Assembly (NCBI GenBank): GCA_038063715.1
Contig: JBBTUO010000007.1
Location: 1,540 to 65,539 of the forward strand
From: Patescibacteria group bacterium
GTDB lineage: Bacteria > Patescibacteriota > Minisyncoccia > Phycocordibacterales > SIBU01
Direction of reading: 5' to 3'
DNA: 64,000 nucleotides
The position numbers were made by a program, and so were the translations under genes. The notes under the pieces are model-generated. The model was not told the origin of the DNA and did no database searches. It saw nothing but the letters and a program-made list of their open reading frames with translations. The first letter of the stretch is position 1, and the number at the start of each line of letters is the position of its first letter. This document shows, piece after piece, positions 6,964 to 62,153 of the stretch.

Positions 6964-7001
6964 ATACATAAATCTTACGCTATAGCGTATAATTTATGTA
7001 T
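6964..7001. repeat. Imperfect ~38-bp palindrome ACATAAATCTTACGCTA|TAGCGTATAATTTATGT, overlapping the start codon of the downstream gene
   Basis: Core TACGCTATAGCGTATAATTT is identical to the downstream copy at 7601-7620. The ATG at 7000 lies in the right arm. Confidence 0.8.
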
Positions 7002-7566: not shown

Positions 7567-7588
7567 TATGAAAGCATCAAAAACCAAT

Positions 7589-7626
7589 ATACAGAAATTA
7601 TACGCTATAGCGTATAATTTCTGTAT
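7589..7626. repeat. Perfect 38-bp palindrome ATACAGAAATTATACGCTA|TAGCGTATAATTTCTGTAT
   Basis: Read directly. Third member of the TACGCTATAGCGTA family, 23 bp downstream of the wHTH-Cas2-like gene. Confidence 0.85.
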
Positions 7627-7687
7627 ATAATGTGTGGATGGATGCGGGCCTAAATTAAGCAGAACGCCTCCAATACAGTTTGAACTT

Positions 7688-8383
7688 TTACAATAAGAGG
7701 AGTGAGGCGACGGCGACTGCGGCGGTTTCGGCGCGGAGGATTTGAGTGCCGAGTGATAGGATTGGAATATTTTTTTCGCGAAACATTGCGAGCTCTTGGT
7801 CGGTGAAACCACCTTCTGGGCCGATGAATATGACGAGAGATTCATGATTTAGGATTTTAGATTCATGAAAGGAGGTGCCAGAGGGATCGAATGCAACTGC
7901 TGGAGCGGGTAGATCCGATAACGCTTTTTCTAGTGAAACCGGCTCAGAAAGTGTCGGTGCGATTCCCCTACCCGACTGTTCAGAAGATTCACGGACAATT
8001 TTTCCGGCACGAATAACATTAAACTTTTTCAAAATAGTTCTTTGAGTGGTCATCGGGCAAAAATGTGAAACGCCCAGCTCAGTCCCCTTTTCCAGAATCC
8101 ACTCAAATTTATCTGGCTTGATCAGCGACTGAAACAAAAAGATTTCTGACTTCGGTGCAAACATATTCTTTCTTTTTTCGAGAATCACTAGCTCCGCTTT
8201 TAAATAAGTAAGCTCGGTAAATTGCGCGGTGTATTCAAAACCGGAATTATCAAAAAGAATAACCGAACTTCCGGTGTTAAGCCGAAGGACATGTCGCCAC
8301 TGACTGAGCAAATCCGACCCCTCGATTGTGATGTGGTGCTGATCACCAATTGTCTGTTCTATAAAAAAATTGTGAAGTCGCAT
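7688..8383 (-). CDS. rsmE: 16S rRNA (uracil1498-N3)-methyltransferase RsmE
   Basis: C-terminal motif FIGPEGGFTDQELAMFREKNIPILSLGTQILRAETAAVAVASL, typical of RsmE. The start is probably MRLHNFF at 8383 rather than the ORF-track 8446. Confidence 0.75.
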   Translation of the reverse strand: MRLHNFFIEQTIGDQHHITIEGSDLLSQWRHVLRLNTGSSVILFDNSGFEYTAQFTELTYLKAELVILEKRKNMFAPKSEIFLFQSLIKPDKFEWILEKGTELGVSHFCPMTTQRTILKKFNVIRAGKIVRESSEQSGRGIAPTLSEPVSLEKALSDLPAPAVAFDPSGTSFHESKILNHESLVIFIGPEGGFTDQELAMFREKNIPILSLGTQILRAETAAVAVASLLLL

Positions 8384-8944: not shown

Positions 8945-9185
8945 TTTTATATCCTTTCAGATATTTCCCGCCACCTTTAGTGGATCGTGCAACCGAGTAA
9001 ATTCGGAAGCGTATCGATGTGAACCCGAAACAGGCTCACTGACGGCCCGGCAAGCTTTCGCAATGACGATAATGACATTGTACATAAAAAACCATGTTTG
9101 TCAAGTATAATAACTGTTACGCTCTCTGTTATACTGATTTATATCCCATTCATAATTCATTATTTCTAATTCATAATTCAACCCC

Positions 9186-13168: not shown

Positions 13169-13196
13169 TAGATTCAGGATTTTAGATTAAAGATTC

Positions 13197-13229
13197 AAGA
13201 AAAAACCGCCCAAGGGCGGTTTTTTTGTT
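13197..13229. terminator. Bidirectional terminator (A-run, hairpin, T-run)
   Basis: AAAAAA-CCGCCC-aag-GGCGG-TTTTTTT. Confidence 0.7.
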
Positions 13230-13624: not shown

Positions 13625-14362
13625 TTATTTCGGCATAAATGGTTTTGCACTTCGCCATGCCATTTCAAAAATAGTTTTTAATGTTTCAGCGATAGTTACA
13701 TCTTCAATCCTAACCACAAAAAGATTCTGCTCCTGCAGTCGGAAAAATGCCACTACATTGCCGTAAATTACATTGTCATTAAAAATCGGGCCGGACGCTA
13801 AACGTGACATATACATCTCCCCCGCTGTTGTGGCCCATCGTTTAGAACTTTGGCGCGCTTCTGGCGTATCCGCAATAATTTCTCTAGTAAAAATTCGATT
13901 ATCGATCGTCGCTTGATTAATTTTACGAAAAATTTCTGGAAACCTTTTCTCTACCGAAGAAAGATCAGACCAAAAAATCAATTCTTTCGTATTTTTTATT
14001 TCCTCGTACATCTGGAGCAAACCTTCTTCTCCTTCAAAAACAGATACGCTCGGTTTACCCTGATTTTCTTGTTGCAACAATTCAAGTTCTCGAATTTGCT
14101 GCTTCCACTCAGACAAACCGTCTTCCAGTTTTTTCTGTAAAACCTTAGGATCAACGGCTCGGTAATACTCCCGCTTACCAATACATACCCGCTGGATAAA
14201 GCTTTTTTTAAGTAATTCATCCAGATACAGATAGACCGTTGGCCGCTTCAAACCAGCCTTTTGTGCGATTTTACCTACTGATGAAGTACCTAAAGCCAAG
14301 GCCGCCATATATACCTTGGCGGCTTTTTCATTTAAACCAAGGTTTTGCAGAACATAGATCAT
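13625..14362 (-). CDS. TrmB-family transcriptional regulator (paralog 2)
   Basis: N-terminal wHTH LGLNEKAAKVYMAALALGTSSVGKIAQKAGLKRPTVYLYLDELLKK. C-terminal half is similar to the other two paralogs. Confidence 0.7.
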   Translation of the reverse strand: MIYVLQNLGLNEKAAKVYMAALALGTSSVGKIAQKAGLKRPTVYLYLDELLKKSFIQRVCIGKREYYRAVDPKVLQKKLEDGLSEWKQQIRELELLQQENQGKPSVSVFEGEEGLLQMYEEIKNTKELIFWSDLSSVEKRFPEIFRKINQATIDNRIFTREIIADTPEARQSSKRWATTAGEMYMSRLASGPIFNDNVIYGNVVAFFRLQEQNLFVVRIEDVTIAETLKTIFEMAWRSAKPFMPK

Positions 14363-17865: not shown

Positions 17866-17906
17866 TGTATACGTTTATAATACACGACCGTGTATTATAA
17901 ACGTAT
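17866..17906. repeat. Perfect inverted repeat TATACGTTTATAATACACG-ac-CGTGTATTATAAACGTATA (19-bp arms)
   Basis: Read directly. Lies between two convergent genes. Confidence 0.8.
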
Positions 17907-17931
17907 ACCGAAAAATAAAGCGGATTATGAA

Positions 17932-24826: not shown

Positions 24827-25642
24827 CTATATAAGGCCATTGTCCGGTCGCGTTGAAATTTCTTTTTTAGTTTCTGAGTCTAATCTTTTCGCTTCCGCCC
24901 ACGCAAGCTCATAAATTTTTTTCATTGCGTCGGCAATTTCTTCGCTTTCAATAATAATCCCGAGCTTCTCTCGCCACGACGCGATCATCACTTTGTTATC
25001 GTAGATATTTATTTCTGGAGAAAAATAATATTTCTCCGATGACACAAGTGCGGTTTCTCGTTTCTCATCTTTGTCCTGTTTTTTTCGTTCTCGCCCAATA
25101 GTTGTTTCCGGAACAATTGCACGAATTGAGATATTTTTCTCCGCTCTCTGTTTGTAATACTTCGGGAAATAGTTGGGGAGTGCTTTATGCATGTCATCTA
25201 CATTTGCATAGGCCCGAATAGGCTCGGAGCTCGTCAAAGTATCTTCATATACGTATTCAAGACCATCTGTTCCCTCGTAAAATCGGATCTTTGGGCGATT
25301 TTCAAGAGAGTAGAGAACATTCAGCTCCGGCAATATTTTTTCTGACTGTTTAATAAAGCCTTCGGTCTGTGAAATTTGCCGTTTCAAATATTCTGTAACG
25401 GCCGTTGGTGGTTCAGGTGCATATTCCTGCTTTGGCTCCTTCCCAGACACGCTGGCCAACTTTTTACTAACTAAAGAGCCGAGAATATCGTAGCCGGTAG
25501 TGCGATTTATCCCTGCCTTGAGTGAAATCTTGGAAACCGTCGCCCTTCCAAGTTCGAGTAGGGCAATATAGACATCAACTTCTTTTTCGCTAAAACCAAA
25601 TGACTGAAGGTTGATTTTTAGTTGGGTGTATTTCTGTTCCAT
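24827..25642 (-). CDS. TrmB-family transcriptional regulator (paralog 3)
   Basis: N-terminal wHTH FGFSEKEVDVYIALLELGRATVSKISLKAGINRTTGYDILGSLVSKKL. The C-terminus (EEIADAMKKIYELAWAEAKRL) is shared with the remnant at 28093-28190. Confidence 0.7.
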   Translation of the reverse strand: MEQKYTQLKINLQSFGFSEKEVDVYIALLELGRATVSKISLKAGINRTTGYDILGSLVSKKLASVSGKEPKQEYAPEPPTAVTEYLKRQISQTEGFIKQSEKILPELNVLYSLENRPKIRFYEGTDGLEYVYEDTLTSSEPIRAYANVDDMHKALPNYFPKYYKQRAEKNISIRAIVPETTIGRERKKQDKDEKRETALVSSEKYYFSPEINIYDNKVMIASWREKLGIIIESEEIADAMKKIYELAWAEAKRLDSETKKEISTRPDNGLI

Positions 25643-27270: not shown

Positions 27271-27300
27271 CCTCGCAAGCAATTGCGAGGTTTTTCTTTT
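27271..27300 (+). terminator. Rho-independent terminator after the radical SAM gene
   Basis: CCTCGCAA-gcaa-TTGCGAGG followed by TTTTTCTTTT. Confidence 0.7.
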
Positions 27301-27303
27301 GCC

Positions 27304-27388
27304 CAGTTTTGCCCGCGCTACTCCGTGGTCGCAACAACTGAGGCCGTCGCACATACCTCTTTATCCATGGTTCGACGCAACTTGATCA
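27304..27388 (+). repeat. ~85-bp double-hairpin repeat, copy A (diverged)
   Basis: TTTTGCCCGCGCTACTCCGTGGTCGCAACAACTGAGGCCGTCGCAC...CGACGCAACTTGA. Aligns with copies at 29215-29300, 29366-29410, 34950-35010 and 42725-42815 (reverse orientation). Confidence 0.7.
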
Positions 27389-29182: not shown

Positions 29183-29214
29183 GGAATGAGTTTGTATTTA
29201 TTTTTTCCCGACTT

Positions 29215-29300
29215 TCCCAATTTTGCCCACGGTACTCCGTGGTTGCAACAATTGCGGACGTCGCACCCCTCTGTTTCCGCAGCGCGACGCAAACTTGAGA
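29215..29300 (+). repeat. ~85-bp double-hairpin repeat, copy B (best-preserved)
   Basis: CCCAATTTTGCCCACGGTACTCCGTGGTTGCAACAATTGCGGACGTCGCACCCCTCTGTTTCCGCAGCGCGACGCAAACTTGAGAG. Hairpin 1 is CCACGG-tact-CCGTGG. Hairpin 2 is GACGTCGC...GCGCGACG. Confidence 0.8.
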
Positions 29301-29365
29301 GAGCCCTGAGCAACTTAGGAAACAAGAAGCACCCCTTCGAGTATCACGAAGCGTGTACCCTTGTG

Positions 29366-29410
29366 GTGCAATTTTGCCCACGGTACCCCGTGGTTGCCAC
29401 AATTGATCCC
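29366..29410 (+). repeat. Partial copy (hairpin-1 half) of the ~85-bp repeat, copy B'
   Basis: GCAATTTTGCCCACGGTACCCCGTGGTTGCCACAATTGATCCC. Confidence 0.7.
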
Positions 29411-29530
29411 AGTTTTGTTTGCGAGCTTTGCCGTCATGCGACGACAGCTCGCCGATAGGAATCGGGCGGTTGTGAGTATCTACAAAACCTGAGGAGGCGA
29501 GTAATCTCGACGTGAACTAATTCGCACTAA

Positions 29531-32393: not shown

Positions 32394-32439
32394 CCATATA
32401 CAGATATTACATGCGGTCGTGTATAATAGCTGTATATGG
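32394..32439. repeat. Palindromic element CCATATACAG...CATGCGGTCG...CTGTATATGG overlapping the start codon of the downstream gene
   Basis: Perfect 10-bp outer arms (CCATATACAG / CTGTATATGG). The inner core shares CATGCGGTCG with the downstream element at 33089-33126. The ATG at 32436 lies inside the right arm. Confidence 0.75.
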
Positions 32440-33002
32440 GAAATCTTGAAAAAGATTCGCGAAGACGAACGCGCAAAGGAAATATTGAGCGGGCCGTTCT
32501 CAACACCGTTGCGGCGGCGGGAGTGTTGAGTGTTGCACTGCTTGCCCCCAACGCACTCAAAATGCTTGGGGTAAAAAACTGGGCCGGATGGAGCCGACAA
32601 AAAGAGGGGGTGGCGGAAGCGAGAAAGCGACTGATAAAAAATGGTTTGCTGGAATATAAAAATAATTCCCTGATGGTAACCGTAAAAGGGGAAGCGAAGT
32701 TGCGACATCTTGAACTGCTGAATTTCAGATATCCAAAACCGAAGCGATGGGACAAAAAGTGGCGCCTGCTAATTTTTGATATTGCTGAGAGTAAACGAAT
32801 ATTGAGAGATAAAGTCAGATTAACTTTGCAAGCAATTGGTTTTGTAAAACTGCAACACAGTGTTTGGGCATATCCCTATAATTGCGAAGACCTGATTGCG
32901 CTTTTGAAAACCGATTTTCGTGTCGGCACTGATCTCTTGTACATCATTGCCGACAACGTTGAAAACGACGCGGTGTTGAAAAAATATTTTGGGTTGCAGT
33001 AA
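32436..33002 (+). CDS. wHTH-like + Cas2/VapD-like domain protein (paralog 2)
   Basis: Clear paralog of 7000-7566 (LLAPNAL, KRWDKKWRLLIFDIAESKRILRDKVRLTLQAIGFVKLQHSVWAYPYNCEDLIALLKTDF). Confidence 0.55.
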   Translation: MGNLEKDSRRRTRKGNIERAVLNTVAAAGVLSVALLAPNALKMLGVKNWAGWSRQKEGVAEARKRLIKNGLLEYKNNSLMVTVKGEAKLRHLELLNFRYPKPKRWDKKWRLLIFDIAESKRILRDKVRLTLQAIGFVKLQHSVWAYPYNCEDLIALLKTDFRVGTDLLYIIADNVENDAVLKKYFGLQ

Positions 33003-33088
33003 AAGGCACGTTCCAAGGTGTCGCGCGAACGGACAGGTAGAAACCGAGTAGAAGCTTGGATCTCTCTAAAAAACACAGAACTCCCCGT

Positions 33089-33126
33089 CTACAGACATTG
33101 CATGCGGTCGCATGTAATGTCTGTAG
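33089..33126. repeat. 38-bp palindrome CTACAGACATTGCATGCG-gt-CGCATGTAATGTCTGTAG (1 mismatch)
   Basis: Read directly. Followed by ATGGG as in the upstream copy. Lies 87 bp downstream of paralog 2. Confidence 0.8.
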
Positions 33127-33256
33127 ATGGGTGGGGGGGGTTGTAGCAGGGATAAGAGGTGTAGTAGGGACACTAGGCGTAACAAGGTAGAACGATTGTA
33201 GACAACTAGCGGGTAACAAAGACGGGGCGTTTTATTTTTTATTGTGGAAATCTCTT

Positions 33257-34950: not shown

Positions 34951-35010
34951 CAATTTTTCTCACGGTACCCCGTGACTGAAAAATTGAGGACATCGCGCTT
35001 ACCGACTTCA
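34950..35010 (+). repeat. ~85-bp double-hairpin repeat, copy C (diverged)
   Basis: CAATTTTTCTCACGGTACCCCGTGACTGAAAAATTGAGGACATCGCGC...GCGATGCAAACT. Confidence 0.6.
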
Positions 35011-36639: not shown

Positions 36640-36673
36640 AACTCGCTCGCAACACTTCCCAAGAACACGGATA

Positions 36674-36697
36674 ACCCCCGCCAGCGCGGGGTTTTCC
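36674..36697 (+). terminator. Rho-independent terminator after the NYN gene
   Basis: CCCCGC-cagc-GCGGGG followed by TTTT. Confidence 0.6.
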
Positions 36698-36917
36698 TAT
36701 GCTCGTTTCGCCACAGTCAAGAGCCTTTCGCGAATACACTCAAGGTCATTGACTGACCAGCTGGCTCAACTCCGCAATGTTCATGGGAAGTGTTGCTCGC
36801 TCGACGATGAAAGAGGGAAAACGAGCGCAAGCCTTTTCCAAAACAACGCTCGCTCGTTAAGGAAAGAAAAAAGCCCCGACAAACTCGGGGCTTTAGACAT
36901 TGTGCGATCTATTTTTG

Positions 36918-37271
36918 TCAATACAGAGAATCTCTTTGATAGGCCGTCACAACATCCGGGTGCAGAGCGATCGAAAAAAGGTTCAAGCAAGGGGGGTTTT
37001 GACAATTAATCACACCGACACCCGCCACATTAGGATCGCCTCGGCGGATTGTGCTGTCAAAACCAACCAGCGCGCCTCGCCAGATGGTAGCCGCAGGTCG
37101 CTTAGTGTCACCGAAACAGAAAAAAGAAAAGTTTTTGCAATGTGGACACAAAAACCCGTGTTCATCGGCGCAGGGCATTTCTGGAGTCGGATGTATGCCC
37201 CAACTAGACCAATGGATCGGCTCTGATCTGACAGGGCTGAGGATTAACGATGAAGATGCTGCGTTTCGCAT
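36918..37271 (-). CDS. Possible Cys-rich small protein (very uncertain)
   Basis: 117-aa ORF with 7 Cys, in a GC-rich unassigned region. A hairpin plus T-run on the minus strand lies immediately downstream (plus coordinates 36862-36892). A competing plus-strand ORF sits at 36900..37226. Confidence 0.2.
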   Translation of the reverse strand: MRNAASSSLILSPVRSEPIHWSSWGIHPTPEMPCADEHGFLCPHCKNFSFFCFGDTKRPAATIWRGALVGFDSTIRRGDPNVAGVGVINCQNPPCLNLFSIALHPDVVTAYQRDSLY

Positions 37272-37516
37272 AATTGAAAAGTTTTGAAGTGAACAAATTT
37301 AAAACCAAAACCACAATCAGTATGTTCATAAAGCCGATTTTTGTCAAAGTGGCCGATGTTTGGAATTTTTGCTACACTGGGCAACATTACAAGCCTGTAG
37401 CTTTGGATAGGTAGGCCTGAACAATCGTTCAAGTCTAAAATCTGAAGCTACTTTAAAATTGGATGGACGAGTATTCGTAGCAATTCGTATATTCGTACAC
37501 ATTCGTATATTTGTAT

Positions 37517-39634
37517 ATGCGCAAGCAAGAATACTCGATTGAACTTGGCGGGAAAACTTTAACAGCAACCTTTAGCGACCTAGCCGAGCAAGCCAACGGC
37601 TCAGTGCTTATTCGCTATGGCAACACTGTTTTCCTTGCCACGGCAGTGATGTCGAAAGGGCAAAAGGACGGAGACTGGTTTCCACTCACTGTGGACTACG
37701 AAGAGCGTTTTTACGCAAGCGGAAAAATTCTTGGTAGCAGATTTGTGCGACGCGAAGGACGACCGAGCGAAGAGGCGATTTTGTCCGGTAGAATTGTGGA
37801 CCGAACCATTCGTCCACTTTTCGATCAACACATCAGATACGAAGTACAGGTGGTAATCACGGTGCTTGCCGTAGACGAGGACGACCCAGATGTTTTGGGC
37901 GTCATCGGCGCCTCTCTTGCACTTGGAACCTCAAATATTCCTTGGAATGGCCCTGTTTCAGCGGTACGAATTGGAATGGAAAAAGGTAAAGATGGTTTCA
38001 TAATTAATCCGACCTACAAGGTGCGTGATGGCGCCGATTACTGCGCGGATATTCTTGCTTGTGGAAAAGATGGGCACATCAATATGATTGAGGTTGGTGG
38101 AAAAGAAGTTCCAGAAAAAACCCTCATGGCTGGACTTAAAAAAGCCTCGGAGGAAATAGAAAAATTGCAGGAATTCCAGAAAAAAATTATTGCTGAAATT
38201 GGTGTCACCAAAAAAGAGGTGCCTGTGCCTGAAATGCCTAAAGAACTTGTATCCCTTTTCAACGAGCACATTGAGAAAAAATTACCTGAATCAGTGATGT
38301 CGGGCAAACCGGGACATGACGCGATTTACGAAATAAAAGGGGAGTGGATGGAGTTGTTCAAGGCTACTTTTCCTGAAATAAAAGCAGCTTTTGCCGACTC
38401 ATATTTTGAAGAAAAGGTGAATGAAATAATTCACAGAGAAGCTGTGGAAAATGGAAAAAGACCAGACAGTAGAGGGATGGATCAGTTACGACCGCTATTT
38501 GCACAGGCAGGTGGCATTTCACCTATACTTCACGGCTCTGGAATTTTCTATCGTGGAGGAACACATATTTTTTCCGCGCTGACTTTGGGAGGCCCTGGAG
38601 AATCACAGGTGGTGGAAGGGATGGAATTTCAAACAAAAAAGCGATTCATGCATCACTACAATTTTCCTCCGTTCTCGTCTGGAGAAACAGGGAGAATTGG
38701 TTCGACCAACAGACGAATGATCGGCCACGGCGCACTTGCGGAAAAAGCATTATCGGCTGTTTTGCCACCAAAAGAAACTTTCCCATACACTATTCGTCTA
38801 GTGTCAGAAGCGTTCGCGTCCAACGGCTCGACCTCGATGGGTTCGGTCTGCGGTTCTACTATCGCAATGATGGATGGAGGAATTCCAATTACCGCGCCAG
38901 TTGCCGGTATCGCGTCCGGACTCATGATGAAGAATGAAAAAGAATACAAGGTGCTCACTGACATTCAGGGGCCAGAGGACCATCATGGTGACATGGATTT
39001 TAAAGTTGCTGGTACGACAGCGGGGGTTACTGCAGTGCAAATGGATGTGAAAGTTGGAGGTATTCCACTGCATATTCTTGAGGAAGCATTTGAAAAGGCG
39101 AAACAAGCCCGGCTTCAAATTCTCGAGGTGATTACAAAAGAAATTGCACAACCTCGCGCTGACATTTCACCAAACGCACCGAAAATTTTGGTTATAAAAA
39201 TCAACCCAGACCAAATTGGTCTTGTTATCGGAAGCGGCGGCAAAACCATAAATGAAATCCGAGATACAACGGGGGTTACCGGAATTGATATCGAGGAGGA
39301 TGGTACCGTCTTCATCACTGGTAAAGACGGAAGCGCGGAAGCGGCGAAGAAAATTATTGAGGACATGACTCGAGAATACAAACCTGGTGAAAAATTTATT
39401 GGTACTGTTGTAAAAATTGCCGAGTTCGGAGCATTTGTTTCAATCAGTCCAAACGCTGACGGACTCGTTCATGTTTCAGAAATGGCAAACTTTAGAATTG
39501 ATCGAGTAGAAATGTACCTTAAGGTGGGCGACAAAGTGCCAGTGGTAGTAAAAGAAATAGATAAAGAGAAGGGGCGGATTAAATTGTCAATAAAGGACGC
39601 TGATCCTGATTTCATTAAGCGCAAAGCCGCTTAA
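37517..39634 (+). CDS. pnp: Polyribonucleotide nucleotidyltransferase (PNPase)
   Basis: Two RNase PH domains, KH (GSGGKTINEIRD) and S1 (GTVVKIAEFGAFVSI). The ORF track starts at a TTG (37511); the ATG at 37517 is more likely. Confidence 0.92.
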   Translation: MRKQEYSIELGGKTLTATFSDLAEQANGSVLIRYGNTVFLATAVMSKGQKDGDWFPLTVDYEERFYASGKILGSRFVRREGRPSEEAILSGRIVDRTIRPLFDQHIRYEVQVVITVLAVDEDDPDVLGVIGASLALGTSNIPWNGPVSAVRIGMEKGKDGFIINPTYKVRDGADYCADILACGKDGHINMIEVGGKEVPEKTLMAGLKKASEEIEKLQEFQKKIIAEIGVTKKEVPVPEMPKELVSLFNEHIEKKLPESVMSGKPGHDAIYEIKGEWMELFKATFPEIKAAFADSYFEEKVNEIIHREAVENGKRPDSRGMDQLRPLFAQAGGISPILHGSGIFYRGGTHIFSALTLGGPGESQVVEGMEFQTKKRFMHHYNFPPFSSGETGRIGSTNRRMIGHGALAEKALSAVLPPKETFPYTIRLVSEAFASNGSTSMGSVCGSTIAMMDGGIPITAPVAGIASGLMMKNEKEYKVLTDIQGPEDHHGDMDFKVAGTTAGVTAVQMDVKVGGIPLHILEEAFEKAKQARLQILEVITKEIAQPRADISPNAPKILVIKINPDQIGLVIGSGGKTINEIRDTTGVTGIDIEEDGTVFITGKDGSAEAAKKIIEDMTREYKPGEKFIGTVVKIAEFGAFVSISPNADGLVHVSEMANFRIDRVEMYLKVGDKVPVVVKEIDKEKGRIKLSIKDADPDFIKRKAA

Positions 39635-39639: not shown

Positions 39640-39725
39640 TAATTTCTAAATTATAATTTCTAATTTCTAAAAACCCTAGGATCATTTGGAAATTTCATTA
39701 GATATTAGGACTTAGAAAGTAGAAA
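39640..39725. repeat. AT-rich intergenic element with inverted termini (AATTTCTAAATTATAATTTCTAATTTCTAAA ... TTAGAAAGTAGAAATTTAT)
   Basis: The left 30 nt is identical to the copy at 41072-41105. Right halves are similar. Related copies at ~4335-4420, ~46370-46410, ~57215-57300 and ~9140-9180. Confidence 0.7.
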
Positions 39726-39773
39726 TTTATTTTGAAACTTGGCTCAAGCGAATTTATTTGCGACAATGTAACT

Positions 39774-40670
39774 ATGCCAGACAGCCAAGAAACACAAGAC
39801 TCGGCGCCCAAGCCTCTTCGCACATATCAAAGCGACGTTGAAGCGATCCTAAAAGAAGGTGACGGATCATTTGCAAAAATCGCAATCGCTGAAAGCGAAC
39901 GCCAAGCTCGTGGTGGTTTTGCCCCGGAGGAAGTGGCGACGCCAAACCATAATCGCCTCATCGTTGGGATAAGTGTTACGCTTATTGTTATAAGTATTGG
40001 AGTACTGTCGGGGCTATATTTTTTTAGGGACGCTTCAAAAAATCCTGTAGAAATCTCTGGACCAAAACCATTGATCGTAACTGATGCACAAAAAAATTTA
40101 AATATCGCTTTCCTTACTCGTGACCAAATTATTAATACACTTATACGAGAGCGGGATAGCAACAGTGCAACTCTATCATCAATAGTTGGTATTCAATTAA
40201 ATGAGGGGGCGGGGGAAACTGCCAAGGCTGTGACCACTAAACAATTTTTAGAAGCGCTAAACATTGAGGCACCAGAGGAACTCGCTAGAACACTGAATGA
40301 TAATTTTATGCTCGGAATCTACGCGCTAAACAGGAATCAACCTTTTCTAATATTGAAAACCAGTTATTACCAAAACGCCTTCGCGGGAATGCTCGAATGG
40401 GAAAAAACCTTGCGGGCTGACATCGGCTCTATTTTTATAGTCCCTGAACCGGCAGCCTTCGCGTCCACCAGTGATCAAATCACCAGCAGAAGTAATTTAT
40501 TTGAGGATGTCGTAGTAAAAAACAGGGATTCCAGAGCTATTCGCGGGGAAAGCGGAAAAATAATTTTCCTATATTCTTTTGCTGACAAAGAGACGATAAT
40601 TTTTACCACAAACGCAGACGCCCTAGAAAAAGTGGCGGCACAGCTCTTAGCGGGTAAACTAGTACAATAA
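39774..40670 (+). CDS. Hypothetical single-pass membrane protein
   Basis: One TM (LIVGISVTLIVISIGVLSGLYFF) after a hydrophilic N-terminus. The ATG at 39774 is the likely start; the ORF track begins at a TTG at 39732. Confidence 0.4.
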   Translation: MPDSQETQDSAPKPLRTYQSDVEAILKEGDGSFAKIAIAESERQARGGFAPEEVATPNHNRLIVGISVTLIVISIGVLSGLYFFRDASKNPVEISGPKPLIVTDAQKNLNIAFLTRDQIINTLIRERDSNSATLSSIVGIQLNEGAGETAKAVTTKQFLEALNIEAPEELARTLNDNFMLGIYALNRNQPFLILKTSYYQNAFAGMLEWEKTLRADIGSIFIVPEPAAFASTSDQITSRSNLFEDVVVKNRDSRAIRGESGKIIFLYSFADKETIIFTTNADALEKVAAQLLAGKLVQ

Positions 40671-40694
40671 AAAGAAAGTTGATATGATGTAATT

Positions 40695-41057
40695 ATGGAA
40701 AATACACATATAAAACATTTCGAAGGGCTCCTAAAAAATGAACTGTCGATCTTGGAGCAAGAACTAAAGAGCATTGGCCAAAGGAACCCCAGGAACCCAG
40801 CTGATTGGGAGGCGAAACCAGATCTAATGGACACCATGCCTGCCGATTCAAATGAAGTAGCAGACAGCATTGAATCATACGAAGAAAATACTGGCATACT
40901 AAAGCAACTTGAAATTCGTTTTAACGAAGTAAAAAAAGCACTCGAAAGAACAAAAAATGGAACGTACGGTCTCTGCGAAGTGGACCGGGAGCCAATTGAA
41001 ACAAAAAGACTCGAGGCTAATCCTGCGGCTACTACATGTACTAAGCATATGAAATAA
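40695..41057 (+). CDS. DksA/TraR-family C4 zinc-finger protein
   Basis: A coiled-coil N-terminal part, then C-terminal Cys pairs (GLCEVDREPI...TTCTKH). 120 aa. Confidence 0.55.
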   Translation: MENTHIKHFEGLLKNELSILEQELKSIGQRNPRNPADWEAKPDLMDTMPADSNEVADSIESYEENTGILKQLEIRFNEVKKALERTKNGTYGLCEVDREPIETKRLEANPAATTCTKHMK

Positions 41058-41069
41058 AGTTTTCAAAAA

Positions 41070-41155
41070 CTTTATTAATTTCTAAATTATAATTTCTAAT
41101 TTCTAAACCGGAGTCAAATTCGAATTTTATTAGACATTAGTAATTAGAAATTTAT
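41070..41155. repeat. AT-rich intergenic element, copy near-identical to 39640-39725
   Basis: ATTAATTTCTAAATTATAATTTCTAATTTCTAAA...TATTAGACATTAGTAATTAGAAATTTAT. Confidence 0.7.
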
Positions 41156-42724: not shown

Positions 42725-42815
42725 CAAAATGGGTTTACGTCGCGCTGCGGCAACAGAGGAGGCGCGACGTCCTCAATTGTTGCAACCGCGGAGTACCGTG
42801 GGCAAAATTGGGAAC
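42725..42815 (-). repeat. ~85-bp double-hairpin repeat, copy D (reverse orientation)
   Basis: The reverse complement is GTTCCCAATTTTGCCCACGGTACTCCGCGGTTGCAACAATTGAGGACGTCGCGCCTCCTCTGTTGCCGCAGCGCGACGTAAACCC, about 90% identical to copy B. Confidence 0.8.
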
Positions 42816-42903
42816 AAAAACCGCCCGGCTTTCGGGGGTTTTATTCTTAAATCCTAAATCTAAAATCTTGAATCCGAATCCGTTTTAGTACACCCTTGGC
42901 GTA

Positions 42904-43896: not shown

Positions 43897-44397
43897 AAGG
43901 CTCCTAATTGAGGATTTTATGGCCTTGTTGAGCCTTTTTTTGGATTTAGGCCAACAAGATATGAGAATGTCTTTTAAAATAAGCCTATATTCTTAGCTAT
44001 TCTGCCGGTCATTCGGTAAAGTGGCTCTGTGAAGCCATATAAGGAAAATCACTCTTGCCTCTCTATACCTTTTATTATAGTCTTTCCTACCCTGAAGTCA
44101 ACCTTTTAAATTACTCCTGTGGATAAGAATTGCTCGGTTAATTTCCTTCGCTGAAGCGCTTCGCAAGCTTGAAAATTGTGTCGGTTCGCTTGCGGTAAAT
44201 TAAAAACTCCTCAAAGATTCGTCAAACAGTTTAATTTACTGGCTCACCTCGTAATTTTCTAAACTTGCTACGCTAACCTGCTCAGTAAATCAACCTCGCT
44301 TACGACAACTCCCTAAAATTCAGAAATTTTATGGAGTTGTAGGTCATGAGACCTTTAATAGTTTCGTTTAATTCGTATTTTCGTATATTATTCCTGC

Positions 44398-46365
44398 ATG
44401 GAACATCTCACCGGGCTCAACGATCGACAAAAGGAAGCTGTCTTACAGACAACCGGACCACTTCTCATCATCGCGGGGGCGGGGGCGGGCAAAACGAAGA
44501 CCATAACTCACCGGATTCTAAACTTAATCAAAACCGGCGTTGCCCCTAAAAGTATCCTTGCCGTAACATTTACCAACAAAGCTGCGAAAGAAATGCGAGA
44601 CCGAGTGATGAAGCTCCTCGCCGAAGATAAAAGTCTCAATTTTCCCGTACCAAACTTTGAAACCTACAATTTCAACTCCAACATTCCTATAGTGAGTACT
44701 TTTCACTCGCTTGGCGTTCGCATCTTGCGAGAAAATTGTAAAACTCTAGGCATTCCGCTCCATTTTTCAATTTTAGACAAAGGAGACTCGATAAAATTCA
44801 TCAAAGATGCGATGGACGAGGCTGGAGTGGACAGAAAAAGTTTTGATCCAGGCCTTATTCAAAATTTAATCAGCAGAGAGAAGGGAAATGGCATATCGTG
44901 TGCCCAATTTGAAGCAAAAGCTGGTTCTGAATACATTCCAAGTACCGTGGCATCGGTCTGGAAACGTTACGAGGCCATGCTCTCAAAAGAAAAAGCCTTG
45001 GACTTTGATGATCTTCTCCTAAAAACGGCAACCTTGCTTCGGGACAATTCCGTCGTGCGAGAACACTACCAAAACACTTGGCAATATATTCACATTGATG
45101 AATATCAAGATACCAACCGGGTGCAATATCTGATTGCGAAATATTTGGCCGAGAAAAACAAAAATATCTGTGTAGTGGGGGATATCGATCAGACAATATA
45201 TTCTTGGCGAGGAGCAGACATAAAAAATATTTTGGGTTTCGAAAAAGATTATCCTGAGGCAAAAATGGTCATGCTCGAAGAAAATTATCGTTCCACCCAA
45301 ACAATTTTGACCGCGGCCAACCGAGTAATAGCCAAAAATAAAGTCAGACGGGACAAAAATTTGTTTACAAAAAACGGAGAAGGGGAGCTAGTGGGCCTTC
45401 TCGAAGCTTATGACGAAAATGACGAAGCTCGTTTTGTCGCCTTGAAATCTAAACAACTAATTGAGGAGAAGGGCGTGAAAGCTTCTGAAATCGCAGTGCT
45501 TTACCGTGCCAACTTCCAGGGTCGGGCACTAGAAGAAGCGATGCTGGGAAATGATGTGCCATACCAAGTCCTCGGAATCCGTTTTTTTGAGCGCAAGGAA
45601 GTAAAAGATGTGATTTCTTATCTAAAAGCATCATTAAACGAGGAGGGTCTGTCAGATTTGAAACGAATTATAAATGTTCCCGCTCGAGGTCTAGGTAAAG
45701 TGACCATTTTGAAAATTTTCTCGGGGCAAGAAGAAAGTTTGCCCGAAACAACTCGAAAAAAAGTGGCGAGCTTTAGGGCCATACTCGCGGGCATTAAGGA
45801 AAAAGCCCTTACAGAAAAGCCGTCACAAACTATCCGGCATATCATAAAAGAAAGTGGAATCGAGGCCGAACTACGCGCAGGAGGTAACGACGAAGCTGAA
45901 CGATTGGAAAATATTAGAGAGTTAGTAACATACGCCAGCAAATATGATGTATTTGAAAAACCAGAAGAGGGGATACTGCGCTTTATTGAAGAAGCGGCGC
46001 TCGCTTCCGATCAGGACGAACTGATGAAAGGGCACGAAGCGGTGAAACTAATGACGGTGCACGCGGCAAAAGGGCTCGAGTTTGAATATGTTTTCATCAC
46101 GGGTCTTGAGGCAGACTTGTTCCCTCACAAAAGGCATGACGGCGGCAAAATTGACGAGAGACAGGCGGAGGAAGAACGGAGACTTTTCTATGTGGCCTTG
46201 ACGCGGGCCAAGAAAAAATTGTACCTTTCATATGCAAGTATTCGGACCATTTATGGTTCAAAGCAGATCAATGTACCGTCAGAATTTGTGTTTGATATAG
46301 ATGATGAGCTCATTCAGAAAGAAGAAGCGTTTGAGGGAGGAGGTAAGATAATTTATTTAGATTAA
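44398..46365 (+). CDS. pcrA: ATP-dependent DNA helicase, UvrD/PcrA/Rep family
   Basis: LNDRQKEAVLQTTGPLLIIAGAGAGKTKTITHRI (motif I), HIDEYQDTNRVQY (motif II), and motifs III-VI including VALTRAKKKLYLSY. Confidence 0.9.
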   Translation: MEHLTGLNDRQKEAVLQTTGPLLIIAGAGAGKTKTITHRILNLIKTGVAPKSILAVTFTNKAAKEMRDRVMKLLAEDKSLNFPVPNFETYNFNSNIPIVSTFHSLGVRILRENCKTLGIPLHFSILDKGDSIKFIKDAMDEAGVDRKSFDPGLIQNLISREKGNGISCAQFEAKAGSEYIPSTVASVWKRYEAMLSKEKALDFDDLLLKTATLLRDNSVVREHYQNTWQYIHIDEYQDTNRVQYLIAKYLAEKNKNICVVGDIDQTIYSWRGADIKNILGFEKDYPEAKMVMLEENYRSTQTILTAANRVIAKNKVRRDKNLFTKNGEGELVGLLEAYDENDEARFVALKSKQLIEEKGVKASEIAVLYRANFQGRALEEAMLGNDVPYQVLGIRFFERKEVKDVISYLKASLNEEGLSDLKRIINVPARGLGKVTILKIFSGQEESLPETTRKKVASFRAILAGIKEKALTEKPSQTIRHIIKESGIEAELRAGGNDEAERLENIRELVTYASKYDVFEKPEEGILRFIEEAALASDQDELMKGHEAVKLMTVHAAKGLEFEYVFITGLEADLFPHKRHDGGKIDERQAEEERRLFYVALTRAKKKLYLSYASIRTIYGSKQINVPSEFVFDIDDELIQKEEAFEGGGKIIYLD

Positions 46366-46415
46366 GAAATCCAAATAAATAATTCCTAATGTCTAAGTAC
46401 TAATTTCCAAAATCA

Positions 46416-47189
46416 ATGTTTCAAAAGAAATCATTAGGACAAAATTTTCTTAAATCAAAAAAGGTTCTCTCGGATATTGTTCAGGCTGGAAAAATACAGC
46501 CAGGGGAAACTGTTTTGGAAATTGGTCCAGGGGAGGGGTCACTTACGGAAGTATTACTATCGGCCGGTGCAAAAGTTGTAGCTGTGGAAAAAGATCGTCG
46601 ACTCATTCCAGTACTTAAACAAAAATTTGCGAAGGAAATTGCTAATGGCTCACTCACATTAAACGAGGCCGACATTCTTGACTTTAACCCCTCTTCTTCC
46701 CTAAAAGCTAGCAGCTACAAGCTAATAGCTAATATACCCTACTACATTACCGGCATGATTTTAGAAAAATTCTTATCTGGGGAAAATCCGCCAACACTCA
46801 TGGTGCTTATGGTACAGAAAGAAGTTGCGGAAAGAATTATGGCTCGAGATGGGAAAGAAAGTATTCTTTCAATGAGCGTTAAAGTTTATGGGACGCCGCG
46901 ATATGTCGGGACAGTAAAAGCAGGCAATTTTGTCCCGGCGCCAAATGTCGATTCCGCAATTCTTGCCATCGAAAATATTTCTAAGAAATTCTTCGCTGAT
47001 GTCTCGGAAGAAAAATTCTTTGCCGTCATGAAGGCGGGCTTTGCGCACAAACGCAAACAACTCCTCGGAAATTTAAAAACAAATTGGCCAAACATTACAA
47101 CGGAAACCCTGATCAAAATCGGCCTCAACCCAAAAATCCGCGCCGAAGATTTAACGCTCGAAAATTGGCTCGTACTGGCTAGAAACTAA
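46416..47189 (+). CDS. rsmA: 16S rRNA (adenine1518/1519-N6)-dimethyltransferase
   Basis: SLGQNFLKSKKVL...VLEIGPGEGSLTEVL...NIPYYIT, the canonical KsgA/RsmA. Confidence 0.9.
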   Translation: MFQKKSLGQNFLKSKKVLSDIVQAGKIQPGETVLEIGPGEGSLTEVLLSAGAKVVAVEKDRRLIPVLKQKFAKEIANGSLTLNEADILDFNPSSSLKASSYKLIANIPYYITGMILEKFLSGENPPTLMVLMVQKEVAERIMARDGKESILSMSVKVYGTPRYVGTVKAGNFVPAPNVDSAILAIENISKKFFADVSEEKFFAVMKAGFAHKRKQLLGNLKTNWPNITTETLIKIGLNPKIRAEDLTLENWLVLARN

Positions 47190-56654: not shown

Positions 56655-56775
56655 ATTATACGAAAATACGAATGAAGACGAATATACGAACATATACGAA
56701 AGGGGAAGGGGTGCGAGATTCATTTTTCGTGACCATTTCGTATATTCGTACAATTCGTATTTTCGTATATTAATT
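56655..56775. promoter_or_regulatory. Large inverted repeat of TACGAA / TTCGTA repeats around a G-rich centre (AGGGGAAGGGGTGCG)
   Basis: Left arm ATTATACGAAAATACGAATGAAGACGAATATACGAACATATACGAA. Right arm TTTTTCGTGACCATTTCGTATATTCGTACAATTCGTATTTTCGTATATTAAT. Related elements lie upstream of 58094 and 61119. Confidence 0.6.
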
Positions 56776-57208: not shown

Positions 57209-57341
57209 ACACAAAGGTGCATGCGTCAATTTCTAAGTCCTAATATCTAATTTCTAATCAAAGATCTGGGTTAGATATTAGAAATTATAATTTAGAAATT
57301 TTGCACAATTCACCAGTAGATATATCTGATATAATAAATCA

Positions 57342-57995
57342 ATGGCAACCAGTGCAAACAGCAAGGCCACGCAGGAATTCGTCCCCATCAAAGAAGTCCG
57401 GGATGGGATTGTCGTTCTGAAGGACGGCTCTTTTCGTGCCGTGCTCATGACCTCATCCTTAAACTTCGCGCTGAAATCGGAAGAGAACCAAAATGCAATT
57501 ATTTCACAATTTCAAAATTTTCTAAACTCTCTTGATTTCTCTATACAACTTTTCATTCAATCGAGAAGGCTCGATATCAGACCCTACATCGGACTACTAG
57601 AAGGGCGTTACAAAGAGCAAGCTACCGACCTAATGAAAATTCAAACTCGGGAATACATAGAATTCATAAAGAATTTTACTGAAAACTCGAGCATAATGAC
57701 GAAAACCTTTTTTGTCGTCGTGCCGTATGCATCTGCACCAATCCAAGCGCAGGGGGGCGTGGTGGAAATGGCAGGTAAGTTTATGACGCGGAAAACCGCA
57801 GAAGAGAAGGTTCAGAAAAAACAAGATACATTTGAAGAAAACCGTAGCCAGCTCTTACAGAGAATGTCTGTTGTTGAACAAGGTTTAATGCGGTGCGGTA
57901 TACGAGGGGTTCAGCTCGGCACCGAGGAAGTGGTAGAATTGTTTTATAAGATTTTCAACCCGGGCGATACCGAGAAGCCGATACAGATAAACTAG
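57342..57995 (+). CDS. Hypothetical protein, resembles N-terminal region of VirB4/TraC-type proteins
   Basis: EFVPIKEVRDGIVVLKDGSFRAVLMTSSLNFALKSEENQNAIISQFQNFLNSLDFSIQLFIQSRRLD parallels the N-terminus of the adjacent VirB4-like protein. Confidence 0.4.
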   Translation: MATSANSKATQEFVPIKEVRDGIVVLKDGSFRAVLMTSSLNFALKSEENQNAIISQFQNFLNSLDFSIQLFIQSRRLDIRPYIGLLEGRYKEQATDLMKIQTREYIEFIKNFTENSSIMTKTFFVVVPYASAPIQAQGGVVEMAGKFMTRKTAEEKVQKKQDTFEENRSQLLQRMSVVEQGLMRCGIRGVQLGTEEVVELFYKIFNPGDTEKPIQIN

Positions 57996-58093
57996 TATCA
58001 ATGCTAATATACTAATGATACGAATGGGGAAGTTGCATTTGATTGGTATAATTAGTATGAATTCGTATATTGGTATCGCTACATAAAATAATC

Positions 58094-59914: not shown

Positions 59915-60003
59915 CACACAACATGGAGCATGTAACACAGGAAACCGAATTTTTGCTTTCTTTAGTGGTACGTGTTGTGTGCTCCATGTTCCATGTCTAA
60001 CCT

Positions 60004-60996: not shown

Positions 60997-61118
60997 TTAC
61001 ACTAGTAGCGATGCCGATATACGAATGAATGCTAATTATACAAATGGAGAAGGGCGGGATTCGTATCATTAGAACAATTAGTATATTAGTATCGATACTT
61101 TGTGGTAAAATAATAACC

Positions 61119-62153
61119 ATGAATAGCCTCGTTACAACACTCCTAATGTCGCTGGTTTTTACACCACTAATCACAAGTGCTCAAAACTTCCAAAACCTTG
61201 GCGGGGGACAGACCAGCAGCAACATCACTGCCCAAGTCACACCAGAAAAACCGCTACCAAACCAATTTGTAACCGTCACTGTCGAAAATTACTCGACTGA
61301 CATAAATCGAGCAAACATATCTTGGTTCCTCAACGGCAAAATGGAAAAAGAAGGTGTTGGCGAAAAAAGCTTTCTTTTTAAGACTGGTGCGCCAGGTAGC
61401 GTATCGAACATTTTGATTGTAATCAAAACAACGGAAGGTGAGACCTTGCAACACGTGCTCAACATCAGACCAGGAGCGCTCGACCTTGTGTGGGAAGCGC
61501 AATCCTATACACCACCGTTCTACAAAGGGAAGGCTCTATATCCATATCAAGGCACAGTGAAAGTAGTAGCGCTACCAAACATAGTGAACGAAAACGGGGA
61601 GATTATAAATAGTAAAAATCTTGTATATACATGGAGTGTGAACGGTGGTACGGTAGCAAGCGTATCAGGATATGGAAAAAATTTTATATACTACAACGGT
61701 ACAATACCTATCAACTCCACCGCAATATCCGTAGAGGCGTCGTCTTTAGACAAAAAGTACAGCGCGGGTGGATCTATATCACTCGAACCACAAGCCCCCC
61801 TTGCCCTTTTCTACGAGGACAGTCCAATTTATGGTTTGTTGTATAATAAAGTCTTGGGAACAAGCGAGACCCTAAAAAATGAGGAGATTAAAATCGTGGC
61901 TATCCCATATTTTGTCGGGGTAAAAGAAAGAGAGGGGAGCGGATTACTCTACGAGTGGCGATTGAATAGTAATTTGGTAAATTCCGTTAAAGGTCTCAGC
62001 AGTTTAACCTTTAAACAAGAAAATGATGCCAAGGGCACCGCTTCGGTTTCACTCCAAGTTTCCAACCCCGCAAGAATGTTCCAGTTTGCAAACAATGATC
62101 TCTCGATTACATTTGGACAAATTTCAGGTATAAACCTCTTTCCAACACAATAA
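61119..62153 (+). CDS. Hypothetical secreted protein
   Basis: Signal peptide MNSLVTTLLMSLVFTPLITSAQ. Beta-rich composition. The ORF track begins at 61029, upstream, but the signal peptide favours 61119. The stop overlaps the next start (TAATG). Confidence 0.4.
   Translation: MNSLVTTLLMSLVFTPLITSAQNFQNLGGGQTSSNITAQVTPEKPLPNQFVTVTVENYSTDINRANISWFLNGKMEKEGVGEKSFLFKTGAPGSVSNILIVIKTTEGETLQHVLNIRPGALDLVWEAQSYTPPFYKGKALYPYQGTVKVVALPNIVNENGEIINSKNLVYTWSVNGGTVASVSGYGKNFIYYNGTIPINSTAISVEASSLDKKYSAGGSISLEPQAPLALFYEDSPIYGLLYNKVLGTSETLKNEEIKIVAIPYFVGVKEREGSGLLYEWRLNSNLVNSVKGLSSLTFKQENDAKGTASVSLQVSNPARMFQFANNDLSITFGQISGINLFPTQ

Follow-up and report, generated by a model that had tools for sequence, protein, structure and literature searches.

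The DNA analysed here (the window) was a 64,000-nt stretch of contig JBBTUO010000007.1, from a metagenome-assembled genome (MAG) of a Hainich groundwater Patescibacteria bacterium whose nearest named relatives are Ca. Taylorbacteria. Its genes included those for trigger factor (tig), ClpP and RNase Y, for PNPase (pnp), a 298-aa protein (hyp298) and a DksA/TraR-like zinc-finger protein, and for a ComM/YifB-type ATPase (comM), PcrA/UvrD and KsgA. A type IV secretion system (T4SS)-like gene row contained, by Pfam, PrgI, a TraG/VirB4-like ATPase and a T4SS pilin. Between genes of this window lay AT-rich repeats with inverted ends, four of which (E1–E4, after tig, pnp, the DksA-like gene and the PrgI-family gene, respectively) formed one family; their structure, evolution and possible role are the subject of this report.

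A 32-nt sequence, TAATTTCTAAATTATAATTTCTAATTTCTAAA, at 39640-39671 was identical to that at 41076-41107, and a 31-mer copy with two mismatches was found on the minus strand at 57270-57300; the 31-mer had zero matches in shuffles of the window. The 9-mer AATTTCTAA occurred 15 times in the window against 1.57 expected (at most five in any of 100 shuffles), always in one of four intergenic sites (4336-4425, 39641-39670, 41077-41152 and 57228-57300). Each site folded into a long imperfect hairpin of -13.9 to -22.8 kcal/mol (z -2.1 to -5.3 against dinucleotide shuffles). The termini AATTTCTAA ... TTAGAAATT were present at all four copies and, beyond these tips, the entire arms were inverted repeat arrays. 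The window sequence was also carried by NCBI MAG contig CAYHIP010000002.1 (GCA_964356825.1), by two ENA contigs from Hainich groundwater wells and by a Logan assembly, at 99.75-100% identity and with zero indels. Since independent assemblies had the same sequence, the elements were not an assembly artefact; no indel polymorphism was seen among four strain-level assemblies.

E2 (39641-39730, plus strand) began 6 nt past the pnp stop codon (39634) and was followed by TTTATTTTG. Its 5′ arm read TTTCTAA-ATTATAA-TTTCTAA-TTTCTAA and its 3′ arm consisted of TTAGAnn units; Tandem Repeats Finder (TRF) reported period 7 and 4.4 copies, and the fold had -18.5 kcal/mol with z -2.1 (z -4.0 in spacer-by-spacer folding). 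E3 (41077-41155, plus) lay in the spacer from the DksA-like stop codon (41057) to the comM/yifB-like ATG (41159); its 5′ arm was identical to that of E2 and its fold had -13.9 kcal/mol (z -2.7). Directly before it, and overlapping the DksA-like stop codon, was a small AT-only hairpin, AATAAAGTTTTCAAAAACTTTATT (41053-41076, plus; -5.3 kcal/mol, z -11.3). E4 (57228-57302, minus; -22.8 kcal/mol, z -5.3) was a full-length, inverted-orientation copy of the E2/E3 element, located 3′ of the PrgI-family gene (stop 57208) and followed by TTTT. E1 (4336-4426, minus; -19.8 kcal/mol, z -2.4) lay 13 nt past the tig stop codon (4322) and was directly abutted by a canonical GC-rich terminator hairpin (4427-4460, z -9.0).

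All eight arms of the E family were period-7 tandem arrays (TTTCTAA/TTAGAAA), with the best self-match at lag 7 (0.61-0.77) and 3.4-4.4 copies of period 7 by TRF; lag-7 segments numbered four, compared with 0.1 in shuffles. The 5′ arms were built from TTTCTAA-ATTATAA-TTTCTAA-TTTCTAA or NNNCTAA variants and the 3′ arms from the complementary TTAGAnn; neither arm had a GTAG end. The two arms could be told apart, and were arranged in one order in E2 and E3 and in the other in E4 and E1. E2, E3 and E4 were homologous in both arms and in some of the loop (CC-AG-ATC-TTTG), while the number and order of units varied among the four copies and the loops were loosely similar. The elements are probably short tandem arrays of heptanucleotides in inverted pairs, (TTTCTAA)n ... 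(TTAGAAA)n. They are simple-sequence repeats like those of the short tandemly repeated repetitive (STRR) kind, and one of several spacer motif families in this lineage. Their identity as inverted heptanucleotide arrays that evolve in concert appears fairly secure.

An earlier note on this DNA had described an AT-rich intergenic repeat family with inverted termini between tandem genes, and this was borne out by the 75-95-bp hairpins and by the excess of AATTTCTAA. The identical left part that it saw in the pnp and DksA-like elements measured 32 nt rather than 30, and AGAAATTATAATTTAGAAATT (57280), given there as a perfect palindrome, was palindromic in its inner 12-mer AAATTATAATTT alone. Two of its related copies were true members, namely the one after tig (E1) and the one at 57228-57302 (E4, full-length and inverted). 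Those at pcrA (46366-46415) and clpP (9139-9185) were instead one-armed arrays of NNNCTAA and ATTCATA units, respectively, with no hairpin (minimum free energy (MFE) 0 to -6 kcal/mol). The period-7 tandem arms, which are the defining feature, had been overlooked.

Folding of the spacers yielded three classes of hairpins: classical terminators with a short GC-rich stem and a T-run, perfect AT-rich palindromes of 36-46 nt, and long AT-rich hairpins with repeat arms. There were eight of the last class in the window, spanning 71-125 nt, with 24-47 pairs, a stem GC content of 0.19-0.41 and a predicted stability of z -2.1 to -9.2 relative to shuffles. All eight were in co-directional spacers, and the T4SS-like row (54.9-63 kb) had one in each of five consecutive spacers. 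Seven of the eight were recovered by spacer folding; relative to the stop codon upstream they started at -5 to +19 nt, and relative to the next start codon they ended at -5 to +36 nt. The eighth was E1. Besides the E family, an ATTCGTA-family hairpin (56657-56775, plus; -46.6 kcal/mol, z -9.2) filled the spacer from stop 56654 to ATG 56777, and an ATTAGTA/ATTCGTA-family hairpin (57994-58082, plus) lay between stop 57995 and the TraG/VirB4-like ATPase gene. An inverted-orientation copy of the latter (61004-61099, minus; z -2.9) was found between stop 60996 and a promoter-like box, TGGTAAAAT (61103-61111), and a hairpin with period-7 arms of AACATGG, AGCATGT and AACACAG (59920-59990, plus; -28 kcal/mol, z -3.4) between stop 59914 and ATG 60004. 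A strict heptad description failed for the ATTCGTA family, in which the 7-nt motif recurred at 8-10-nt spacing.

The spacers were then compared with those of nine further genomes (ComM identity 78-88%; loci L005, L006, L007 and L162-L167), in which the order pnp-hyp298-dksA-like-comM-LysM peptidase-pcrA-ksgA was kept; W denotes the window and L001 its part from 30695 to 51057. These close relatives were gathered individually; a ComM scan gave at most 63% identity among the matches listed, and a metagenome scan with the 298-aa neighbour at most 45%. A long repeat-arm hairpin was present in the dksA-comM spacer of nine of the ten genomes, built from seven different arm motifs: TTTCTAA in W, GAATCAn/ATTCATA in L162, ACTGAAT in L005, AAATCCG in L006, AAGTTGAT in L163 and L166, ACTTAAT in L007, and CGAATG in L164 and L165. 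Downstream of pnp, repeat-arm hairpins were found in W, L005, L006 and L164, and GC-rich hairpins with a T-run occupied the same place in L007, L165 and L167.

The pnp-downstream arrays of W, L006 and L163 all began after the same TGAAATAA and had a common U-V-U-U layout of units. Between W and L006 the same substitutions were present in every unit (TTTCTAA versus ATTCGAA). The three arrays are related by descent, and their unit-wise common substitutions reflect concerted evolution rather than independent insertion. Within a genome, local alignment of the pnp site with the dksA site scored 85 in W and 48 in L006; orthologous pairs scored 25 and 35, with a background of 12-25. The two loci of one genome were thus more alike than orthologues were. 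Between the orthologues of L005 and L007, ACTGAAT/ATTCAGT had become ACTTAAT/ATTAAGT, so that both sides of one base pair were changed (G-C to U-A). Whole hairpins were also gained or lost in spacers between species. The hyp298-dksA spacer measured 24 nt in W, whereas L005 had 136 nt and L163 had 211 nt there, both with a hairpin; the pcrA-ksgA spacer was 8 nt in L162 versus 144 nt in L163; and the ACTGAAT family occupied different spacers in L005 and L165.

Two observations on the relatives may be recorded here. In the orthologous hairpins L163 8717-8820 and L166 2904-3000, a C-to-A change in the 3′ arm coincided with pairing to another, neighbouring unit of the 5′ arm (AAGTTTATAAGTT instead of AAGTTGATAAGTT), and repeated arms may buffer mutations by such a shift of the pairing register. 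In L005, two inverted heptad arrays, AGAATCA x4 (3956-3983) and ATTCTTG x4.7 (4403-4435), bracketed a small gene (4009-4368) with Pfam 23S_rRNA_IVP and bAvd matches; neither the window (L001) nor L007 had a counterpart called in the interval from rpsO to the NYN gene. The gene may have been inserted into a repeat-arm hairpin.

The elements might be small non-autonomous mobile elements (MITE-, REPIN- or foldback-like), i.e. two-arm units of ~80-95 bp copied in either orientation by an enzyme encoded elsewhere, with any effect on expression being incidental. The homology of E2, E3 and E4 through arms and loop, the inverted orientation of E4 and E1, the inverted pair 57994-58082 and 61004-61099, the presence or absence of hairpins in the hyp298-dksA and pcrA-ksgA spacers and of the ACTGAAT family in different spacers of L005 and L165, and the 32 identical nt of E2 and E3, which suggest recent copying, are all consistent with this. 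We nevertheless consider it unlikely. The flanks of the four copies had no common direct repeat, and the TA at both ends of three of them belonged to the repeat unit (TAA), although a TA duplication is possible. No transposase or Y1/RAYT domain was detected by Pfam among the 30 window proteins scanned. Unit number and order were variable, loops were only loosely alike and one-armed arrays existed; the pnp-downstream arrays were related by descent, with concerted unit-wise substitutions; indel polymorphism was zero in the four strain-level assemblies; and the 28-nt core had no match in IMG/VR. The earlier note had named MITE-like repeats as one possibility. A classical miniature inverted-repeat transposable element (MITE) was rejected for lack of a target-site duplication at any of the four copies and of a transposase among the 30 proteins scanned; the variable heptad arrays, the one-armed arrays and the other motifs in orthologous spacers also spoke against it. 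Because full-length copies occurred in both orientations and their presence differed between genomes, some copying mechanism, by gene conversion or non-classical mobility, may still operate.

Other known identities were discarded as well. The only Rfam matches in the window at gathering score were four tRNAs, and around the elements nothing meaningful appeared at E <= 1. A phage origin was rejected on the lack of an IMG/VR viral contig matching the 28-nt core, and a DNA uptake sequence because no single motif dominated.

The position of the hairpins relative to promoters was examined in a survey of 100 called gene starts from seven close genomes (L001, L005, L006, L007, L162, L163 and L164). 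A Shine-Dalgarno (SD)-like motif was found at six starts. TANNNT, often TGn-extended, ended at -10 to -7 in 44, and 33 of these 44 matched TATAAT at five or more positions (window examples 39759-39776, 40683-40697, 57327-57344 and 61103-61121). These sequence patterns suggest widespread leaderless mRNAs in the lineage. After E2, a promoter-like site (39739-39767, plus) consisted of TTGGCT, a 17-nt spacer and TGCGACAAT, its -10 box ending 7 nt before ATG 39774, as would be expected for a leaderless transcript, and the motif TTGCGACAAT..ATG was kept in L006, L163 and L165. E4 and its TTTT were followed by TGATATAAT (57327-57335) and ATG 57342, and the hairpin at 61004-61099 by TGGTAAAAT and ATG 61119; the open reading frame (ORF) start called at 61029 is probably wrong, the true start being 61119. 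In all three cases an extended -10 box ended 7-8 nt before the ATG. Each of E2, E4 and the 61004-61099 hairpin is followed by a recognisable promoter for the next gene, and thus fills the position between that promoter and the end of the preceding gene. Where a hairpin or one-armed array reached the ATG, its last units often supplied the -10 box.

One-armed arrays of this kind were found before several genes. An ATTCGTA array (37473-37517, plus) ended at the pnp start codon (ATG 37517), with TATATT at 37506. A TTTCGTA/ATTCGTA array (44354-44390, plus) lay just 5′ of the pcrA ATG (44398), with TATTAT at 44386. The ATTCATA array (9148-9180, plus; 4.7 units, one of them TTTCTAA-like) ended 5 nt before the clpP ATG (9186), with CATAAT at 9172. 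The pcrA-ksgA spacer (46366-46415, plus) was filled by the units TTCCTAA, TGTCTAA, GTACTAA and TTTCCAA, with best lag 7, no hairpin and MFE -2.1 kcal/mol.

The repeats might be 5′-side regulatory elements of the downstream gene, which supply or modulate a promoter (-10-like hexamers every 7 nt, an AT-rich UP-like tract) or form a platform with multiple sites for a DNA- or RNA-binding protein, for example S1, a Csp or a regulator. Such a role has been proposed for the TAACTGA and Nostoc heptamer repeats. One-armed arrays ended 0-8 nt before the clpP, pnp, pcrA and ksgA starts. The 3′ arms often held a -10 box at leaderless spacing, with a perfect TATAAT at -12 to -7 of L005 ksgA, TATATT or TATTAT at pnp, pcrA and the gene at 56777 (TATATT at 56766) in W, and CATAAT at comM and pcrA in L162. 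In L162, L163 and L005, some divergent spacers had hairpins directly 5′ of promoters; in convergent spacers hairpins were rarer (1 of 13). Elsewhere, TAACTGA repeats lie within several nt 5′ of starts that seldom have a canonical ribosome-binding site (PMC4679880), and start-proximal heptamer repeats affect recO promoter regulation in Nostoc (bioRxiv 10.1101/2022.06.06.494920). However, a regulatory role on the 5′ side leaves the matching 5′ arm unexplained. A terminator and ~100 nt stand between E1 and the next gene, the promoters downstream of E2 and E4 are complete, separate sites which these hairpins do not form, and TTAGAAA units lack a good -10 hexamer. Motifs that vary by spacer and by genome further argue against a single sequence-specific binding protein. 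This role seems improbable, slightly more so than mobility.

The reading that we prefer, at a probability of roughly 0.4-0.45, is that the hairpins are 3′-end or insulator RNA hairpins which would close the upstream transcript. It is favoured because of their position, their interchange with terminators, their persistence through motif turnover, the sense-strand bias of folding and the one compensatory change. As to that bias, the sense RNA was predicted to be more stable than the antisense RNA for all eight window hairpins and for 17 of 22 overall (sign test p = 0.017), which is what G-U pairing on the transcribed strand would give.

As regards their origin, which goes with the more secure reading of what they are, the elements appear to arise and turn over in place. 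Slippage by the 7-nt unit would alter the arrays, and copying between loci, most simply by gene conversion, would spread them; slippage and copying together would make copies within a genome alike and leave other motifs in the orthologous spacers of sister genomes. In the transcript-end model, the two arrays would pair, when the upstream gene is transcribed, into a long imperfect AT-rich RNA hairpin, placed directly after the stop codon and directly before the promoter of the next gene. That hairpin, often with a short U-rich stretch, might serve as punctuation at the transcript end, either as a weak, leaky terminator or insulator, as a barrier to 3′ exonucleases or as a processing site, and thereby separate the upstream transcript from the leaderless unit downstream. 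Because repeated arms can pair in several registers, the hairpin would withstand point mutations and changes in unit number. Anatomy, period-7 arms, position, turnover between genomes, interchange with GC-rich terminators and the folding bias are read from the sequence, whereas transcription of the elements, folding of their RNA into the hairpin and an effect on termination or stability are inferred. The earlier note had offered RNA processing sites or attenuators as further possibilities, and these would fit the preferred reading, in which an RNA hairpin ends the upstream transcription unit.

Several results weigh against a role at the transcript end. The stems are AT-rich (18-30% GC), and a short T-rich stretch follows about five of the eight but is short or absent in three. 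A scan for consensus promoters and terminators (36-47.5 kb) performed at chance level and did not call the elements. GC-rich terminators are plentiful in the genome, one of them directly after E1. Repeat-arm hairpins were found in 15 of 48 co-directional, 4 of 18 divergent and 1 of 13 convergent spacers of seven genomes; were these pure terminators, more of them would be expected in convergent and fewer in divergent spacers, although the differences were not significant (Fisher p = 0.15). By the same test, a restriction to co-directional spacers, true in the window (8/8), could not be maintained across the seven genomes. E3 ends 4 nt before the comM ATG, so that a promoter could not fit in between. 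Although E2 and E3 have identical 5′ arms, their 3′ arms are degenerate, which is unexpected under strong selection for pairing. The hairpin is dispensable, the dksA-comM spacer of L167 being 18 nt without one. The strand bias is modest (Wilcoxon p = 0.07), with strand composition as a possible cause.

Heptads were not confined to this group of genomes. In 1.48 Mb of Paceibacteria loci, period 7 was the commonest tandem-repeat period outside long ORFs (156 kb), with 56 arrays against 12 of period 6 and 30 of period 8; periods 9 and 12 dominated in coding DNA of the same loci. TTTCTAA arrays also occurred in the distant loci L085, L070 and L080, and heptad-armed hairpins in L140, L081, L032, L085 and L050. 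A clade-wide hairpin census by pair count did not rise above shuffles (475 real versus 424 shuffled). A census by BLAST self-hits overlooked known cases, and a z-score filter was usable, yet its set mixed A/T-extended terminators with repeat-arm hairpins, so that no clade-wide rate is given.

In-frame period-7 arrays were also found inside the ksgA/rsmA coding sequence, in a variable stretch just 5′ of the conserved YKLIAN-IPYY (NxPY) motif and with a different heptamer in each genome. They were located at 46701-46732 in the window (ksgA 46416-47189), L163 14861-14909, L162 ~5780-5825, L085 6147-6190, L061 7507-7538, L032 15729-15755, L039 5414-5474 and L007 15269-15299; the L163 array, TTTTCAA x4, encodes FSIFNFQFSN. 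Over 51 loci, the mean lag-7 self-match of this stretch was 0.354, versus 0.24-0.29 at lags 5, 6, 8 and 9. Because these heptads are in frame and differ in heptamer between genomes, they point to a general process generating 7-nt repeats.

Such a process might also account for the spacers. The hairpins would then be a neutral mutational by-product of a lineage-wide 7-nt slippage bias with occasional inverted duplication, and would have no selected function. The enrichment of period-7 arrays in Paceibacteria non-ORF DNA and even in ksgA, the fast turnover of motifs and the absence of a hairpin in L167 agree with this; moreover, heptanucleotide repeats were described, in the papers citing Mrazek 2007 (PMC4679880, PMC4692102), as the most abundant long class of simple-sequence repeats in most prokaryotic genomes, with polymerase slippage blamed. 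However, slippage alone would give direct arrays rather than matched inverted pairs. Nor would it readily account for hairpins in the same spacer of nine of ten genomes despite complete sequence turnover, for interchange with GC-rich terminators at one slot, for the sense-strand preference (17 of 22) and the compensatory pair, or for hairpin ends that directly adjoin stop codons and promoters or start codons. A neutral origin is therefore doubtful, to about the same degree as mobility. A bolder proposal, of low probability, is an undescribed and actively homogenised heptad foldback-hairpin system of Paceibacteria. It would either largely replace terminators and operon punctuation in leaderless, SD-less genomes or consist of tiny hairpin mobile elements with a dedicated enzyme or RNA-binding partner, the same 7-nt process writing the ksgA arrays.

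Among known repeats, the window elements are closest in kind to the STRR heptanucleotide repeats of heterocystous cyanobacteria, for which the units in the strict sense are CCCCAGT, TTGGTCA and CAACAGT, and to long heptanucleotide simple-sequence repeats at large (Mazel 1990; Mrazek 2007, as cited in PMC4692102 and PMC4679880). According to these citing papers, the STRR are likewise intergenic tandem 7-nt units in 3-5 copies, often within gene clusters, with several unit families per genome, lineage-specific units and slippage as the proposed origin. The present repeats differ in their host, Patescibacteria (candidate phyla radiation, CPR), in their AT-rich units, in being mostly inverted pairs that form a spacer-spanning hairpin, and in a concerted turnover documented across sister genomes; with another host and other units, they resemble the STRR and are not members of them. 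The GGGAATC repeats of Xanthomonas and the GGGGA(T/C)T repeats of Nostoc (Rehm et al. 2015, PMC4692102) are also intergenic heptamer arrays that keep their position between relatives while varying extensively in length and sequence, and some form inverted pairs with possible stem-loops or cruciforms. Those repeats are G-rich and quadruplex-forming, whereas the window repeats are AT-rich, have no G-runs and show inverted pairing as the rule.

TAACTGA direct repeats of marine Beggiatoaceae, cyanobacteria and Bacteroidetes (MacGregor 2015, PMC4679880) similarly form heptamer arrays at most a few nt 5′ of starts, in genomes or regions without canonical Shine-Dalgarno sites. In the window, start-proximal direct heptamers were those of the clpP, pnp, pcrA and ksgA one-armed arrays, together with the E3 3′ arm. 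A post-transcriptional role was proposed for the TAACTGA repeats, with no functional pattern among the downstream genes (PMC4679880). One heptamer dominates there, in 169 direct sets versus one inverted, whereas many motifs and inverted arrays were found here. The period-8 hairpin unit AATAACTG / ACTGAATA of L005 (9911-9940) and L165 (2367-2450) contained TAACTGA, possibly by coincidence.

Like REP/BIME elements and REPINs (Bertels & Rainey 2011, PMC3116915), the elements are intergenic ~70-110-nt hairpin doublets of inverted short repeats that occur in both orientations, between convergent or co-directional genes. Where the window elements have tandem heptads, each REP arm is one imperfect palindrome whose GTAG-type end is conserved. 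REPINs require a RAYT transposase and can number in the hundreds; the 64-kb window had four E-family copies. Like Rho-independent terminators, the window hairpins stand directly after a stop codon, often with a short T-rich stretch, and the two interchange in the pnp-downstream slot; they differ in their long, interrupted AT-rich stems versus short GC-rich ones, and both coexist in the same genome. REP hairpins can protect the 3′ end of the upstream mRNA, as in the malE-malF case. Foldback (FB) transposons and IR-DR type ends, which are eukaryotic, kilobase-scale and transposase-dependent, offer an analogy of architecture, their inverted termini also being built of tandem short units. No description of such repeats in Patescibacteria was found in the literature searched, the coverage of which was incomplete.

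Since few Patescibacteria/CPR have been cultured, their gene expression signals are almost unstudied. If the hairpins are the usual punctuation between leaderless units, gene and operon calls would need revision. The over-represented intergenic heptamers of bacteria would gain a tractable comparative system, in which one spacer can be followed through complete motif turnover, and there would be a clean case of dispersed micro-repeats evolving in concert within very small genomes. Even as neutral slippage products, the repeats would mark an unusual mutational bias that reaches the ksgA coding sequence.

Further repeats were found in other spacers of the window. A GATTnnn heptad array (42843-42880, minus; best lag 7) had the LysM/M23 peptidase gene's stop codon on one side and a GC-rich terminator on the other, with sister arrays at 13169-13200 and 7839-7875. 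Near-perfect AT-rich palindromes of 36-46 nt, TACATAAAT..ACGCTATAGCGT..ATTTATGTA, were located at 4999-5034, 6955-7008, 7587-7628, 17867-17908, 32394-32439 and 33085-33131 (z ~-5 to -11). Several bracketed genes with a PaaX_M (Cas2-like) domain (6679-7566 and 32436-33002), and in L005 and L162, too, GCTATAGC-type palindromes stood 5′ of PaaX_M genes. The palindromes may act as operators or bidirectional terminators, or may be a further repeat family. A GC-richer family of ~54 nt (TTCCCAATTTTGCCCACGGTACTCCGTGGTTGCAACAATTG...) had copies at 27299-27352, 29213-29267, 29364-29417, 34951-34974 and 42761-42814 (minus), which were 85-94% identical, occurred in both orientations and each held a CCACGGTAC(C/T)CCGTGG palindrome. 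DnaA-box clustering near pcrA was rejected, TTATCCACA having just two occurrences, within chance.

The 877 nt at 36640-37516, from the NYN-domain gene to pnp, had no called gene and no Rfam match, and contained two GC-rich terminator-like hairpins and further significant ones (e.g. 37397-37451, z -6.5); this stretch could hold an unannotated RNA or small gene. Three paralogous TrmB-family regulator genes (5123-5878, 13625-14362 and 24827-25642, all minus) were present within 20 kb, an unusual density for a small genome. Comparison of the window with the strain-level contig L002 revealed 17 differing positions, none of them in repeat elements. Fifteen fell within 242 nt at the 3′ end of pcrA (46101-46342), in what looks like a short recombination tract.

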